Shown one piece after another: positions 19,070 through 62,855 of a stretch of DNA of 64,000 bases; position 1 is the stretch's first letter; each line of letters starts with the position of its first letter. A program made the translations under genes and the position numbers. The notes below the pieces were generated by a model. That model was given only the letters and a program-made list of their open reading frames with translations, did not search any database and was not told the DNA's origin. Origin of the DNA: Heterodontus francisci (lineage: Eukaryota); contig NC_090371.1 of assembly GCF_036365525.1 (NCBI RefSeq), forward strand, positions 217,675,056-217,739,055, given 5' to 3'.

Positions 19070-19226
19070 GACCCTTCTTCAACAAAAAAACTTTTTTTCT
19101 TCCTTTCAGGTGTTAAGGATCACAGTTCTGAAGAAGGGTCACTGACCTGAAACGTTAACTCTGCTTCTCTCTCCACAGATGCTGCCAGACCTGCTGAGTT
19201 TTTCCAGCACTTTCTGTTTTTATTTC
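19070..19226 (+). mobile_element. Penelope-like pLTR fragment with minimal hammerhead ribozyme motif, inserted in the LTR
   Basis: AGTT-CTGAAGA-AGGGTC-ACT-GACCT-GAAA-CGTT-AACT at 19124-19160; this segment is absent from the sister LTRs. Confidence 0.75.
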
Positions 19227-40899: not shown

Positions 40900-43800
40900 A
40901 TGTTAAATTTGAGGCTGTGCTACAAGCCTTCGACAAATATTTCAGTTTAAGCAGTAACAAAATTCTGGAAAGAGCAAAATTTACCAAGCGAGTCCAGAAG
41001 ATAGGAGAATCCATCGATTCTTTTATAAATGTACAGTTTGGCTGAGGGATATGACTATGGAGAATTGAAGGCGGAACTGGAAAGGGATTGAATAGTTGTT
41101 GGAATAGCTGATGAGTCAGTTCTCTTACAGTCGAAAGACGGCCTTACACTTGAGAAGGCAAGTCAGATTGTACGACAGACAGAAGTCCGAAGACAATAAA
41201 GAGCCATTCTGCAGGCTGAAGAGAAGCCTTGGATTGGAAGATGTCCAATGACTGTACAGTTCTTGAAGCCAAAGACGGACAGGCAGTCTGTAGAGAAGAA
41301 GACACACAAAGGTAAGAAGGTGCATGACACTGGGAAACCATGCTATTGCTATGGATCCAGGAAGACCCACAGACGGGAACAGTGTCCTGCTAGTAAAGTG
41401 GAATGACCCAGATCAAGGATTTTGTATGGCGGACATTTATGTAAATGGACATTTAACAAATTTCAAATTAGACACAGGTGCTAGTGTCACAGTTCTGTCA
41501 GACCAAGAGCCATGGTTGATGAGACATTGCCCCTACAACCAGCAGACACACAGTTGCATGGTCCAGACGGGACCCAACTGAAAGTGAAGGATAAGCTGCA
41601 AGCAACTCTCCAATATAGAGGGAGGCAAATTTTGGAAACCCTTTATATCTTGCAAAACCAAGAACATTTCTTATGAAACAGAAAAGTGTGCTTAGACCTA
41701 CATCTGATCAAGAAGATTGAAGAAGTCAAACAGCCACAGGTAAATAGTTGCTTTCAAGCAGACTACCCAAAACGCTTCTCAAGTCCAGGAAGACTGAAGA
41801 CAAAGTACAGAATCACACTTAAAGAAGATGCCTGACCAGTGTGTATCTTTACACCAAAAAAGATACCACACCCACTGATGAACCAAGTTTAAGATCAGCT
41901 GGAAGAGATGACCAGGATGGGAGTCATTTCTCCTGTTATGACACTATTGGAGTGGTGTTTGGCTATGGTTCCAGTCCCAAAACAAAATGCTACTCTTCAT
42001 ATCTGTGTGGATTTAACGCAGCTTAACACAGCCCTTTAAAGATGTCTGCAAATGCGACATTAAGTCCTGTGACATTGATCACAAGTCGTGGGAGTCAGTT
42101 GCCAGTGATCGCCAGAGCTGGCGGGCAGCCATAAAGGCGGGGCTAAAGTGTGGCGAGTCGAAGAGAATTAGCAGTTGGCAGGAAAATAGACAGAAGCGCA
42201 AGGGGACAGCCAACTGTGTAACAGCCCCGACAACCAATTTTATGTGCAGCACCTGTGGAAGAGTCTGTCACTCTAGAATTGGCCTTTATAGCCACTCCAG
42301 GCGCTGCTTCACAAACCACTGACCACCTCCAGGCGCTTACCCATTGTCTCTCGAGACAAGGAGGTCAAAGAAGAAGAAGAACAAAGCAGTGGCATAGGAA
42401 ATTCATCCAATGACCACAGTGGTTCACAGCTTGGCAAAATTGTCTCAGAGCATCATGTTCACCAAACTCAATGCTAATAGTGGGTTTTGGCAGGTAGCCT
42501 TAGATGAGACCTCAAGATTACTCACATTTATAACCCCATTCAGAAAACTTTGTTTCAATCGGTTACTGTTTGGGATAACTTCTGCACCAGAGATCTTTCA
42601 AAGGTCTATGTCAAACATCTTGGAAGGGTTCAAGGTAGTTATTTGTCACATGGATGGCATCCATTCCAACAGTTTTACAATGGCTTCAAGAAGCAGGGCT
42701 AACTCTGAACGAGCAGTGTGAATTCTCCAAGATATCAATCCATTTCTTGGGACATATATTAAGCAGTAAAGGTATTTTGGCAGACCCACAGAAGACACGA
42801 GCCATTACAGAATTCCCTACTCCTACTTCCATTCAACAGCTCCAAAGATTCTTTGGAATGGTGAATCAGTCAGCAAAATTTCTATTCAGCTAGCTCAGGT
42901 AAAAGAACCGCTAAAACGACTTCTCAAAAAAGGTCAAGCGTAGTTTTGGAGTTCACTTCAAGAACAAGCATTCCGGAAGATTAAAGAAATGCTCATATCG
43001 TTCGATATCTTGGCACACTATAACCCTACACTACCAACAATGATAGCTGCAGATGCCTCCTCCATGGGGTTAGGGGCAGTCATTTTCCAGGAGCAGTTTG
43101 ATGGTTCTCGCAGACCAAAATACTACGCATCTAGAGCTTTGTCCGAGACAGAGACAAGGTGTGCGGCAATTGAAAAAGAAGCACTAGCCGTCACATGGGC
43201 ATGTGAGAAATTTTCTTATTATATTGTTGGATTGATAGTCATCATCGAGACAGACCATAAACCTTTGTTGGATAAGAAGGAGATCACAAAAATGCCTCCA
43301 AGAATCCGAAGATTTTGTTTAAGATTGATGTGATATACATACAAGACCATATTTGTCCAGGGTAAGATGCAAACATCCGCTGGTGTGCTATCAAGAGTGA
43401 TTGTAGACCATGCAACACAATACGATGTGAATTTTGCAGATGAGATAGAGTCATGTTCGCAATGTATTGAACAACAATGGCAGGAAAGTGTATAGAAATT
43501 AGAAGAAATTCGTCACTCCCAAAAAAGTGCTGAAGAATGGATTTGCAGTATTACGCACAAGGGTGGCCACAAGAAAGACCTTGTGGGAAGACAATGAAAA
43601 ATTTCTATGAATAAAGAAAATACTTCACAGTCATCAATGATTTGCTAGTTTATAATGACAGACTAGACATTCCCAGTTCACTTAGACCAGATATCTTGGA
43701 ATGCCACATGGGAATAATGAAGTGCAAAGCAAGGGCATAATCATCAGTGTGGTGGCCAAGAATATCCAAAGACATCGAAAACTGCCAGATCTGTGCAACA

Positions 43801-50570: not shown

Positions 50571-50750
50571 CTGGCGGCATCTGTGGAGAGAGAAGTAAAG
50601 GTAACGTTTCAGGTCTGTGACCTTTCATCAGAACAGATCTGGAACATTAACTTTGCTTCTCTCGCCACAGATGCTGCCAGACCTGCTGAATATTTCCAGC
50701 ACTTTTTGGTTTTGTTTCAGATTTCCAGCATCTGCAGTATTTTGCTATTA
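50571..50750. mobile_element. Inverted pair of Penelope-like pLTR fragments with a hammerhead motif on the minus strand
   Basis: Minus 50601-50631 reads CTGATGA-AAGGTC-ACA-GACCT-GAAA-CGTT; 50571-50610 is complementary to 50641-50680; same repeat as 19124-19226. Confidence 0.75.
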
Positions 50751-60454: not shown

Positions 60455-60695
60455 AGTCACATAGTAGTTATGTTACTGGAGTAGTAATCGATTGGGTTAT
60501 TAATGATCTGGAGACATGAGTTCAAATCTCACCATGGCACTGTGGAAATTTAAATTCAGTGAATTAAGTAAATCTGGAATAAAAAGTTAGTATTGGCAAT
60601 GGTAGCCTCGAAACTATTGGATTGTCATAAAAGTAAATCAGGTTCACTATTGTCCATTAGGGAAGGAAATTTGCCATCGTTACAAGGTCTGGCTG
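60455..60695 (+). mobile_element. tRNA-headed SINE-like 5' fragment whose body matches the 5' UTR of LINE family A
   Basis: B-box-like GAGTTCAAATC near 60518; body GGTTCACTATTGTCCATTAGGGAAGGAAAT matches minus 16540-16570; short head stub also at 49117-49165. Confidence 0.7.
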
Positions 60696-60879
60696 ATTTG
60701 CTAACTAATCCTCAGTGTGCTAAAAATTATGCAGACAACCAATTTAAGATTGTCAGTAGGGCCCACAGTGTGGTGCATTTGCGCGTACTGCAAGCTACAT
60801 ATATTAATACACAGGGCCCTGTTTCTTTGCAAACAGAAAGAACATGTACAGACATTGCACCTGTTTCAGCTGAATAAAA

Positions 60880-61145
60880 TAAGTGACGGCCATTCGTGGT
60901 TCATTTTTCAGGGCAATGCCTGGTTTTAATTTCAAACAAAGCTTGGCAGTTAACTGTCAGTCACTGTAAACTGGTGCATTCTGCATGGTAACGCCGCTAC
61001 CAATCAGAGTTCACTTGCCAACCAATCAGCACTCTCTTCTCATGTAGTATAAGTTGTTGTTTTTCCTTACATTGGTTATTCTTGCGAATTGTCCTGATGA
61101 GCGCAAGATGAAAAGCTTCGACAACATGTCTCTATTTTCAGCAAT
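60880..61145 (+). mobile_element. Penelope-like pLTR / retrozyme-like unit
   Basis: Two CCAATCAG boxes (61000, 61022), TATAA (61048), then a hammerhead motif. Confidence 0.6.
61080..61124 (+). ncRNA. Minimal type I hammerhead ribozyme with pseudoknot
   Basis: Helix I TTGTC/GACAA; core CTGATGA (61094-61100) and GAAA (61110-61113); palindromic AAGCTT helix III; UUC site; loop II CGCAAGA complementary to upstream TCTTGCG. Confidence 0.8.
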
Positions 61146-62855
61146 TCTCAAGATCACTTAATAGAATCAAAAAGTAGGGAACATATACTAAACCTGCATC
61201 AAACCTTGGTTAGATCACACTTAGAATACTGTGTGCAGTTCTGGTCATCATATTATAAAAAGGATATAGAGGCACTGGAGAGGGTGCCGAGAAGATTTAC
61301 AAGGATTACCAGAAATACATGGGTGTATAATTCAGGAAAGGATGACAGGCTGGATCTCTTTGCTCTTGAAAACAGAAGGCTGAAGGGTGACCCTAATAGA
61401 GATCTTTAAAATTACGAAAGGTTTTGATAGAGTGGATACAGAGAGAATGTTTCCACTTGTGGGGAAGAACATAACAAGAGACCATCAATATGAGATAATC
61501 GTCATGAAATCCAATAGCGAATTCAGAAGAAACCTCTTTTCCCAAAGAGTGTTGAGAATGTGGAACTCACTACCACAGGGATTGGGAGTAATTGAAGCGA
61601 ACTGTATAAATGCATTTAATTGAGGTGTACAAAATCATGAGGGATCTGGGTGTACAGGTCCACAGGTCACTGAAAGTGGCAATGCAGGTGTATAAGGTAG
61701 TCAAGAAGGCATACGGCATGCTTGCCTTCATCGGTCGGGGCATAGAGTATAAAAATTGGCAAGTCATGTTGCAGCTGTACAAAACCTTAGTTAGGCCACA
61801 CTTAGAATATTGTGTGCAATTCTGGTCGCCACACTACCAGAAGGACATGGAGGCTTTGGAGCGGGTACAGAGGAGGTTTACCAGGATGTTGCCTGGTCTG
61901 GAGGGCATTAGCTATGAGGAGAGGTTGGAAAAACTCGGATTGTTTTCACTGGAACGACGGAGGTGGAGGGGCGACATGATAGAGGTTTACAAAGTTATGA
62001 GCGGCATGGACAGAGTGGATGGCCAGAAGCTTTTTCCCAGGGCGGAAGAGTCAGTTACTAGGGGACATAGGTTTAAGGTGCGAGGGGCAAAGTTTAGAGG
62101 GGATGTGCGAGGCAAGTTTTTTACACAGAGGGTGGTGAGTACCTGGAACTTGCCACCAGGGGAGGTGGTGGAAGCAGATACGATAGCGACGTTTAAGAGA
62201 CATCTTGACAAATACATGAAAAGGAAGGGAATAGAGGGATATGGGCCCCGGAAGTGCAGAAGGTGTTAGTTTAGGCAGGCATCAAGATCGGCGCAGGCTT
62301 GGAGGGCCAAATGATCTGTTCCTGTGCTGTACTGTTCTTTGTTCTTTGTTCTAGATAGGAAGGACCTGTTTCCCCCAGCGGAGAGGTCAATTACCAGGGG
62401 GCACAGATTTACGGTGATTGGTAGAAGTAATAGAGGAGACATGAGGAAAAGCTTTTTCACCCAGAGGGTGATGGGTGTCTGGAATTCACTGCCCAGATCG
62501 GTGGTGAAGGCAGAAACCCTCAACTCATTTAAAACGCATCTGGACATGCACCTGACGTGTTGCAACCTGCAAGGCTATAGACCAGGTGCTGGAAGGTGGG
62601 ATTAGATTGGGCGGCTAGTTTTTTTTCAGCTGGCGCAGACACGATGGGCTGAATGGCCTCCTTCTGTGCCATAACTTTTCTATGATTCTAAAGCTAGACA
62701 AGCTTATAATGGAGAAGGGAATAGAGGGTTACGATGATAGATTTAGATGAGGAAAGATGGGAGAAGGCTCAAGTGGAGCACAAAGGCTGGTATGGACTAG
62801 TTGAGCTGAATGGCCTGTTTCTGTGCCATATATCCTATGCAATCTCATGTATGTA
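61146..62855 (+). mobile_element. Three nested same-strand CR1 fragments (outer 61146-61618 and 62691-62855; middle 61619-61645 and 62350-62690; inner about 61640-62351)
   Basis: ORFs 61206-61623, 61610-62269 and 62324-62605; three separate 3' hairpin/tail ends. Confidence 0.88.

Follow-up and report, generated by a model that had tools for sequence, protein, structure and literature searches.

Minimal hammerhead ribozymes are known from the pseudo-LTRs (pLTRs) of metazoan Penelope-like elements (PLEs), and in the account of Cervera and De la Pena 2014 (PMC4209133), as well as in a review (PMC6765202), they are given a design suited to dimers. In the motifs described in the former, helix II is long (7–8 bp in Schistosoma) and one base is left unpaired between positions 9 and 10.1, and PLE hammerheads have been described as lacking tertiary contacts (PMC6155905). 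Cleavage in vitro is slow, and the single element that has been reconstituted could insert without its hammerhead. For Poseidon from Anolis carolinensis (PAc), Frangieh et al. 2024 (PMC11167929) describe two reverse-transcription starts inside the ORF, giving a ‘tail’, a ribozyme that cuts only together with the protein, catalytic mutants that insert normally, and uncut RNA as the main substrate in vitro.

Pseudoknot-braced hammerheads of types I–III were described by Perreault et al. 2011 (PMC3088659), including an active design with a one-pair stem II and a 6-bp pseudoknot; the tested 1-bp example is of type II and of metagenome origin, and in the analysis of pseudoknot versus stem described there, highly repetitive type I motifs were excluded and no PLE link is apparent. 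In the crystal structure of Zhan et al. 2024 (PMC11300833, PDB 8YDC), a single G10.1-C11.1 pair closes the loop that forms a 6-bp pseudoknot, the partner strand coming from an additional hairpin (helix IV), whose loop provides it and which is linked to helix I by AUA4. Furthermore, Lopez-Galiano et al. 2026 (PMC13725137) report type I hammerheads from the 5' UTRs of chryso- and fusariviruses, described as having no recognisable loop contacts and residing in uncapped viral RNA, and measured translation after the cut. Non-LTR retrozymes, finally, are presented as short non-coding tandem units with a hammerhead in each (PMC7229834; bioRxiv 10.64898/2026.07.22.740005).

The motif investigated here lies in a 64-kb stretch of DNA (the window). 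We consider it probable that it is a hammerhead in the pseudo-LTR of a Penelope-like element, placed between the TATA box and the start codon and carrying a predicted brace from loop II; that it is a predicted slow cutter, likely dependent on a dimer or on protein; that insertions are likely made from uncut RNA; and that the copy in the window is likely a fossil.

The motif and the element that carries it

A first-pass annotation of the window had proposed a pseudoknotted minimal hammerhead behind promoter motifs, and direct reading returned the same letters at the same coordinates, including CCAAT at 61000 and 61022 and TATAA at 61048 (Table 1). TCTTGCG (61080–61086) is followed by AA, TTGTC (61089–61093), CTGATGA (61094–61100), G61101, CGCAAGA (61102–61108), T61109 and GAAA (61110–61113), completing the second half of the core, and the palindrome AAGCTT (61113–61118) leads to C61119 and GACAA (61120–61124). 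Both the window copy and the family majority have the C3-A9 box, G12-A13-A14, A15.1-U16.1 and H17, with an open-ended helix I of 5 bp, and the proposed type I fold with helix I TTGTC/GACAA, both core boxes and a palindromic helix III was thus confirmed in the sequence. We also arrive at the same predicted cut, after C61119, by analogy of numbering. Helix III reaches 6 bp only as a dimer, for which the intermolecular AAGCUU duplex was computed at approximately −4.3 kcal/mol. The type I fold, the 5-bp helix I, G10.1-C11.1 and the palindromic helix III/loop 3 are shared with the motifs described in PMC4209133.

When the core was required to come with a Watson-Crick helix I of 5 bp, a single instance was found in the window and none in 200 block shuffles. 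Taken by themselves, the two core boxes are no more frequent than expected by chance (4 matches in the window; at least 4 in 12 of 100 shuffles). The folding z-score of the motif was unremarkable (0.22). A search with hammerhead models, as the annotation had suggested, gave no Rfam hammerhead match for the window or for a majority-like family copy; the Rfam models do not cover such a minimal form. Elsewhere in the window, CTGATGA and GAAA with an 18-nt spacer but without helix I occur at 41108–41136 (+), by appearance a chance look-alike, and a weak Rfam match to SCARNA7 at 2859–2993 (−) (28 bits against a cut-off of 65) is likely due to chance.

Table 1 Features of the window copy and its hammerhead motif, in window coordinates.
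Feature	Position	Strand	Basis or remark
Penelope-like element copy, 5'-truncated (ORF end, pseudo-LTR, tail)	60696..61152	+	457 bp; ~89% identity to family majority
GIY-YIG endonuclease C-terminal end, broken and frameshifted here	60698..60928	+	Translation; matching stretch in longer copies
CCAAT box 1	61000..61004	+	Sequence; putative function
CCAAT box 2	61022..61026	+	In majority of all three subfamilies; putative function
TATAA box	61048..61052	+	At −72 from predicted cut; majority of all three subfamilies; putative function
Initiator-like TTATTCT	61076..61082	+	Sequence; general Inr consensus and TATA spacing
5' strand of predicted pseudoknot brace	61080..61086	+	Complementarity; same in three subfamily majorities; no covariation
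Helix I, 5' strand	61089..61093	+	U-A to C-G compensatory change, subfamily B
Catalytic box C3-A9 (CUGAUGA)	61094..61100	+	Contains AUG at 61097
G10.1, 7-nt loop (brace 3' strand) and position 11.1	61101..61109	+	11.1: majority C, window T
G12-A13-A14-A15.1, palindrome AAGCTT (helix III), C17	61110..61119	+	Numbering by analogy with Cervera 2014 (as given in PMC4209133)
Predicted cut	between 61119 and 61120	+	Numbering analogy
Helix I, 3' strand; first bases of predicted 3' cleavage product	61120..61124	+	Sequence, compensatory pair
ATG and first nine ORF codons, the 3' ‘tail’ of the window copy	61126..61152	+	Tandem copy L204, majority frame, homologue N-termini

When the genome was searched with 60880–61160, 3,940 candidates were returned, the 40 that were scored having 85–95% identity, and exact matches to a 30-letter core pattern tolerating CpG decay gave at least 4,126 core copies (control 0). 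The family was also found in contigs from sequence runs of other organisms. Aligned copies have a common 3' end shortly past the motif and scattered 5' ends, with variable 5' truncation, and the longer ones continue upstream into coding sequence for a reverse transcriptase (RT) and a GIY-YIG-like endonuclease, in agreement with the suggested Penelope link. The family majority, assembled from 25–40 copies per segment, is a single open frame of 870 codons encoding RT and GIY-YIG, with its ATG at +6 from the predicted cut, the motifs DKG, GSPL and YVDD, and, in the endonuclease, YIG together with CCHH residues; a Neptune-type zinc finger or extra finger in the RT-EN linker is absent by eye. DKG and CCHH motifs and a linker with no extra zinc finger are the traits given for the Penelope/Poseidon clade (PMC8557442), and the majority frame, read by eye against that description, shows them.

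At E ≤ 1e-20, 391 database proteins matched the RT part (best identity 62%). Pfam models for RVT_1 and GIY-YIG passed in 5/5 and 1/5 homologues, respectively, the genome's own fragments scoring below the Pfam cut-offs, and a PDB search gave no match below E 0.6. The homologues open with the same N-terminal motif as the family ORF, which fixes the ORF start at ATG 61126; in the tandem copy L204 the reading continues from the equivalent of this ATG into the ORF, and in partial-tandem copies the sequence past the motif likewise runs on into the ORF. Cut to cut, the unit measures 2,810 nt. Among 100 core matches there were nine close pairs, eight of them head-to-head inversions and one a direct pair that is a patchwork.

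Partial tandems forming pLTRs, inverted 5'-truncated copies and a 30–40-bp tail are described for EN+ Penelope-like elements (PMC8557442), and the family has a single ORF for RT with a C-terminal GIY-YIG, together with partial tandems, inverted truncated copies and a tail. As in the elements of PMC4209133, so far as described there, the motif sits in the pLTR of an RT and GIY-YIG element with thousands of solo truncated copies. The motif belongs to a truncated autonomous-type RT and GIY-YIG Penelope-like retrotransposon and not to a stand-alone unit. Two tiny fold-back insertions (L516, 379–583; L569, 376–544) each consist of two ribozyme stubs facing each other head to head, the join lying between TATA and ribozyme. 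One Penelope copy adjoins an apparently young open endonuclease-RT frame of 993 codons (L032, 1357–4335, −), which from its motifs we take to be CR1/L2-like.

The leader, the predicted cut and the insertion ends

The order in the element is TATA box, ribozyme and ATG. From the general Inr consensus and the usual TATA spacing, transcription is predicted to start at A61078, 30 nt past the first T of TATAA and at −42 from the cut, which is two bases before the 5' strand of the pseudoknot, at the 5' edge of the ribozyme. A pile-up of short copies at this predicted start was considered and rejected as not significant: 7 of 100 core-selected copies have 5' ends at −49..−39 (4.3 expected, P 0.15), and 92 of the 100 extend beyond −50. 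The D. virilis Penelope element is reported to be transcribed from its pLTR by a TATA-less promoter (PMC2377424), and the TATA reading is therefore not guaranteed here. As to the proposal that the unit has a promoter of its own, the CCAAT/CCAAT/TATA motifs do stand upstream, but they would matter in tandem copies in which the ORF follows, which is not the case in the window. For a tandem source element, we infer a 48-nt leader that is the ribozyme. The first AUG of an RNA starting at −42 would be the one inside CUGAUGA, which in the family majority opens an out-of-frame frame of 29 codons overlapping the start of the main ORF.

To locate insertion ends, 92 unbiased copies were chosen solely by an upstream 27-mer. 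All but three extend beyond the predicted cut, by 13–61 nt (89/92), the remaining 3/92 stopping at or before it, and the 3' ends form two clusters, one of 31 copies at +25..+32 (+32 for the window copy) and one of 44 copies at +48..+61. On the 5' side, 59 independent copies holding the ORF start were obtained from 74 rows once those repeating a single place had been dropped, along with three duplicated loci that were nearly identical and an inverted piece. The whole ribozyme is read through upstream in 29 of the 59, and 22 pass the TATA box. Full-length copies starting at the cut site, an idea derived from one copy (L141) that has no anchor match and stands outside these 59, were ruled out, as only 2/59 start within 1 nt of the cut and 4/59 within −7..+5. 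Judged by these ends, the predicted cut does not set the insertion ends, and since genomic copies end past it, new insertions are likely copied from uncut RNA.

PAc resembles the family in several ways, to the extent that it is described in PMC11167929: its hammerhead lies at the pLTR-ORF junction, two clusters of 3' ends fall in the ORF start, the flanks are AT-rich, and it inserts from uncut RNA, which the end positions make likely here as well. The two differ in where the cut falls. In PAc, according to that account, the ribozyme contains the start codon, the cut falls 26 nt downstream of that codon and the ends lie 111–118 nt into the ORF, whereas here the ATG is 6 nt past the predicted cut and the ends are ~20–55 nt into the ORF. 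Unlike in PAc, the ORF would thus survive the cut whole, and cutting may for this reason switch translation on. The viral leaders of PMC13725137 are similar, as presented there, in that helix II is short, the motif fills the leader and one of the viral cuts falls 7 nt before the start codon.

For the favoured reading, a mechanism can be sketched as follows. In a tandem source element, transcription would start at around −42, and AAGCUU would pair either between two transcripts or, within a single read-through transcript, between its 5' and 3' ribozymes. Cutting would be slow and conditional, with a dimer or the element's protein required, and would rid the message both of its cap and of the AUG that lies out of frame in the catalytic box. 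The ribozyme's likely job would then be control of the message (translation or turnover) and not the setting of DNA ends; the cut may turn translation on, as described for fungal virus leaders (PMC13725137), or may simply retire the message. A stronger form, drawn by analogy and in our estimate doubtful though conceivable, makes the ribozyme the entire leader of a capped message and a switch of its fate, where uncut RNA would retain its cap, present ribosomes with the out-of-frame AUG and be the insertion template, and a dimer cut would take off cap and upstream AUG together and leave a 6-nt leader for cap-independent synthesis of the RT-endonuclease, as reported for fungal viruses. If true, PLE hammerheads would influence gene expression in a dose-dependent manner. 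With a predicted cut 6 nt before the ATG, a predicted leader of 48 nt and insertion ends set elsewhere, the family separates the candidate roles unusually well.

The read-through copies also bear on a rival, in which both pseudo-LTR ribozymes cut, ligation closes the released 2.8-kb unit into a circle and reverse transcription proceeds round it from inside the ORF start, so that the ribozyme seen in DNA is a re-ligated junction. Such a course is among the proposals for PLEs in Cervera 2014 (PMC4209133, as given there), and both the smooth passage of copies across the predicted start and cut site with no hard stop (the 29/59 and 22 copies above) and the cut-to-cut unit length are consistent with it. 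However, read-through tandem transcripts or template switching would yield identical DNA, and the normal insertion of PAc catalytic mutants and the preference for uncut RNA in vitro, as reported in PMC11167929, argue against it; no circle was seen, and we regard it as unlikely.

Stem II and the predicted brace from loop II

In the family majority, the sequence between the core boxes is G-UGCAAGA-C, with a G10.1-C11.1 pair and T at 61102. Among the 89 unbiased copies, position 61109 is C in 50, T in 37 and other in 2, and the 10.1-11.1 pair is G-C in 44 and G-T in 35. The window copy has G-U, and its T61109 reads as CpG decay of G-C; its C61102 is rare (2/89). The annotation's term ‘structurally intact’ therefore does not hold, the G·U being a decayed form of the most conserved stem-II pair. 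Its stem II of 1 bp with a 7-bp pseudoknot holds as complementarity in the window copy, but in the majority it is one of two parses, stem II also being drawable as 2 bp (GU/AC) with a 5-bp brace.

Three subfamilies were resolved from 200 of 241 copies. Between them, the fifth pair of helix I changes from U-A to C-G (26 UA and 13 CG of 43 rows), a single event. The brace strands differ at 0 of 14 positions among the three subfamily majorities, compared to 13 of 25 just upstream (Fisher P 0.0009, a value that depends on the yardstick, as farther upstream ~10 of 55 positions vary). The linker of 1–2 nt before helix I varies among the subfamilies and can lose a base, while the loop is constant. 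Over six pairs and 43 rows, 94.6% of cells are paired, the brace spanning 5–7 bp, above the minimum of four by which a pseudoknot of loop II with the strand preceding helix I is defined after Perreault 2011. In four runs from other organisms, −40..−36 and −17..−12 showed no difference at ≥8%, in contigs at least 80% alike, a selection that favours conservation. No compensatory change between subfamilies was found in the brace among the 43 rows, the strands being invariant, and the requested test of the pseudoknot accordingly showed conserved strands but no covariation. Lacking covariation, the pseudoknot brace is one that we infer from the sequence. As its 5' strand overlaps the initiator-like site, the conservation could have another cause.

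Relatives with a changed loop were sought in several ways. Pattern searches of viral contigs gave 101 stretches (76 distinct, a 5-bp helix I in 0/76) and those of metagenomes 63 stretches (52 distinct, a 4-bp helix I in 0/52). In the genome itself, two altered-loop patterns revealed no sister family (41 matches versus 34 in controls; 9 versus 13), and the 30 loci examined from the first of these (41 matches) were decayed family copies or chance. Protein-guided scans for a sister family gave no viral loci and 16 distant loci, where hammerheads, if present, were of the ordinary kind with a long stem II; a full-length homologue as query gave 59 places. Contigs from bacterial genome bins (L488–L503) contain RT frames of Penelope-like type, in several cases accompanied by ordinary hammerheads with a long stem II, and are probably animal DNA in bacterial bins.

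Compared to the motifs of PMC4209133, as described there, helix II is 1–2 bp here instead of long, G10.1 directly follows A9 with no unpaired base between them, and the loop shows complementarity to the strand preceding helix I, so that the long helix II and the unpaired 9/10.1 base of the minimal hammerheads of Cervera 2014 are both absent. The motif is closer to those in PMC3088659, where, as far as they are described, loop II or loop I pairs with a flanking strand, stem II is 1–2 bp and repeat-type motifs have a weak palindromic stem III. It likewise shares A9-G12 and a lone G10.1-C11.1 pair closing a pseudoknot loop with 8YDC as described in PMC11300833, but here the partner, 1–2 nt before helix I, is a single strand, and a second molecule is required for helix III; neither the helix IV hairpin nor the AUA4 linker is present. 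The description of PAc in PMC11167929 mentions no pseudoknot at the points consulted. The brace, which would substitute for the missing length of stem II and dock helix I, is a feature that PLE hammerheads are said to lack in PMC6155905. In the literature searched, which did not extend to Lunse et al. 2017 and Weinberg et al. 2015, no report uniting a PLE hammerhead with a pseudoknot brace was found. PLE pLTR hammerheads and pseudoknot-braced hammerheads are known separately and their combination may be new here, unless contained in the first of these two papers, whose abstract reportedly treats pseudoknots before stem I in hammerheads generally and which may already cover this form.

The alternative to the brace is a minimal PLE hammerhead of the ordinary kind whose stem II has 2 bp; the complementarity of the 5' strand would then form a hairpin that inhibits the ribozyme or would merely follow from conservation of the initiator. 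This alternative appears decidedly unlikely to us. The 7-bp helix of the brace strands dominates the predicted nested fold and excludes helix I, and this, the missing covariation and the published view of PLE hammerheads as having no tertiary contacts (stated in PMC6155905) would fit it. Against it, the pairing sits 1–2 nt before helix I, the position of known braces as described in PMC3088659, and the loop stays constant across subfamilies while the linker varies and may lose a base. A small hairpin over the start codon (GACA-ACA-TGTC, 61120–61130), a rival of helix I, is present in the predicted fold of the window copy and could favour an inactive form.

The window copy and its decay

The window copy starts inside the endonuclease frame, carries the hammerhead in its 3' pseudo-LTR and has no partner copy within the window. 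A target-site duplication flush with its ends was not found, and the flanks are different repeats, the right one (61153–62270) being LINE-like and repeated elsewhere in the window and the left one (60460–60695) presumably SINE-like; the insertion was therefore accompanied or followed by deletion. The copy is not in a tandem array, so that this part of the proposed checks was negative, in contrast to the genome-wide family and its RT/GIY-YIG linkage, which were borne out. What had been described as a Penelope/retrozyme-like unit is not self-contained but the end of a truncated autonomous-type element.

That the motif represents a retrozyme or mini-element of non-autonomous type, driven by a promoter of its own, is accordingly very unlikely: most copies are short and promoter-like boxes lie directly upstream of the motif, as it would require, but the window copy starts within the endonuclease frame, 5' ends are scattered, a tandem array is absent and the only direct pair among the nine close pairs is a patchwork. 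The family also lacks the short non-coding tandem units of non-LTR retrozymes.

Non-CpG mismatches in the 89 unbiased copies amount to 3.4% in the core, 3.6% in the brace, 3.6% in helix I and 4.1% in the flank, and the copies thus decay neutrally. The core, the G-C pair, the full helix I and at least six brace pairs are kept together in 11/89 copies, and in 20/89, including the class of the window copy, if G·U is allowed. That the window copy is a ribozyme domesticated by the host is the least probable of all readings: its core, helix I and perfect 7-bp brace do persist, with equal completeness in those 20/89 copies, but all parts decay alike, its G-C at 10.1-11.1 is lost and the window holds no partner copy. 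It is likely an inert fossil, with no likely function.

A second hammerhead family is represented in the window at 19128–19160 (+) and 50607–50631 (−), with an unpaired base after A9, a 5-bp stem II and an AACGTT palindrome; its long stem II and different palindrome confirm the annotation's view that the motif at 61080 is distinct from the family at 19128/50601. Helix I or the cut site is damaged in both of these copies, and a further copy of the second family lies in L031 near 962 (−).
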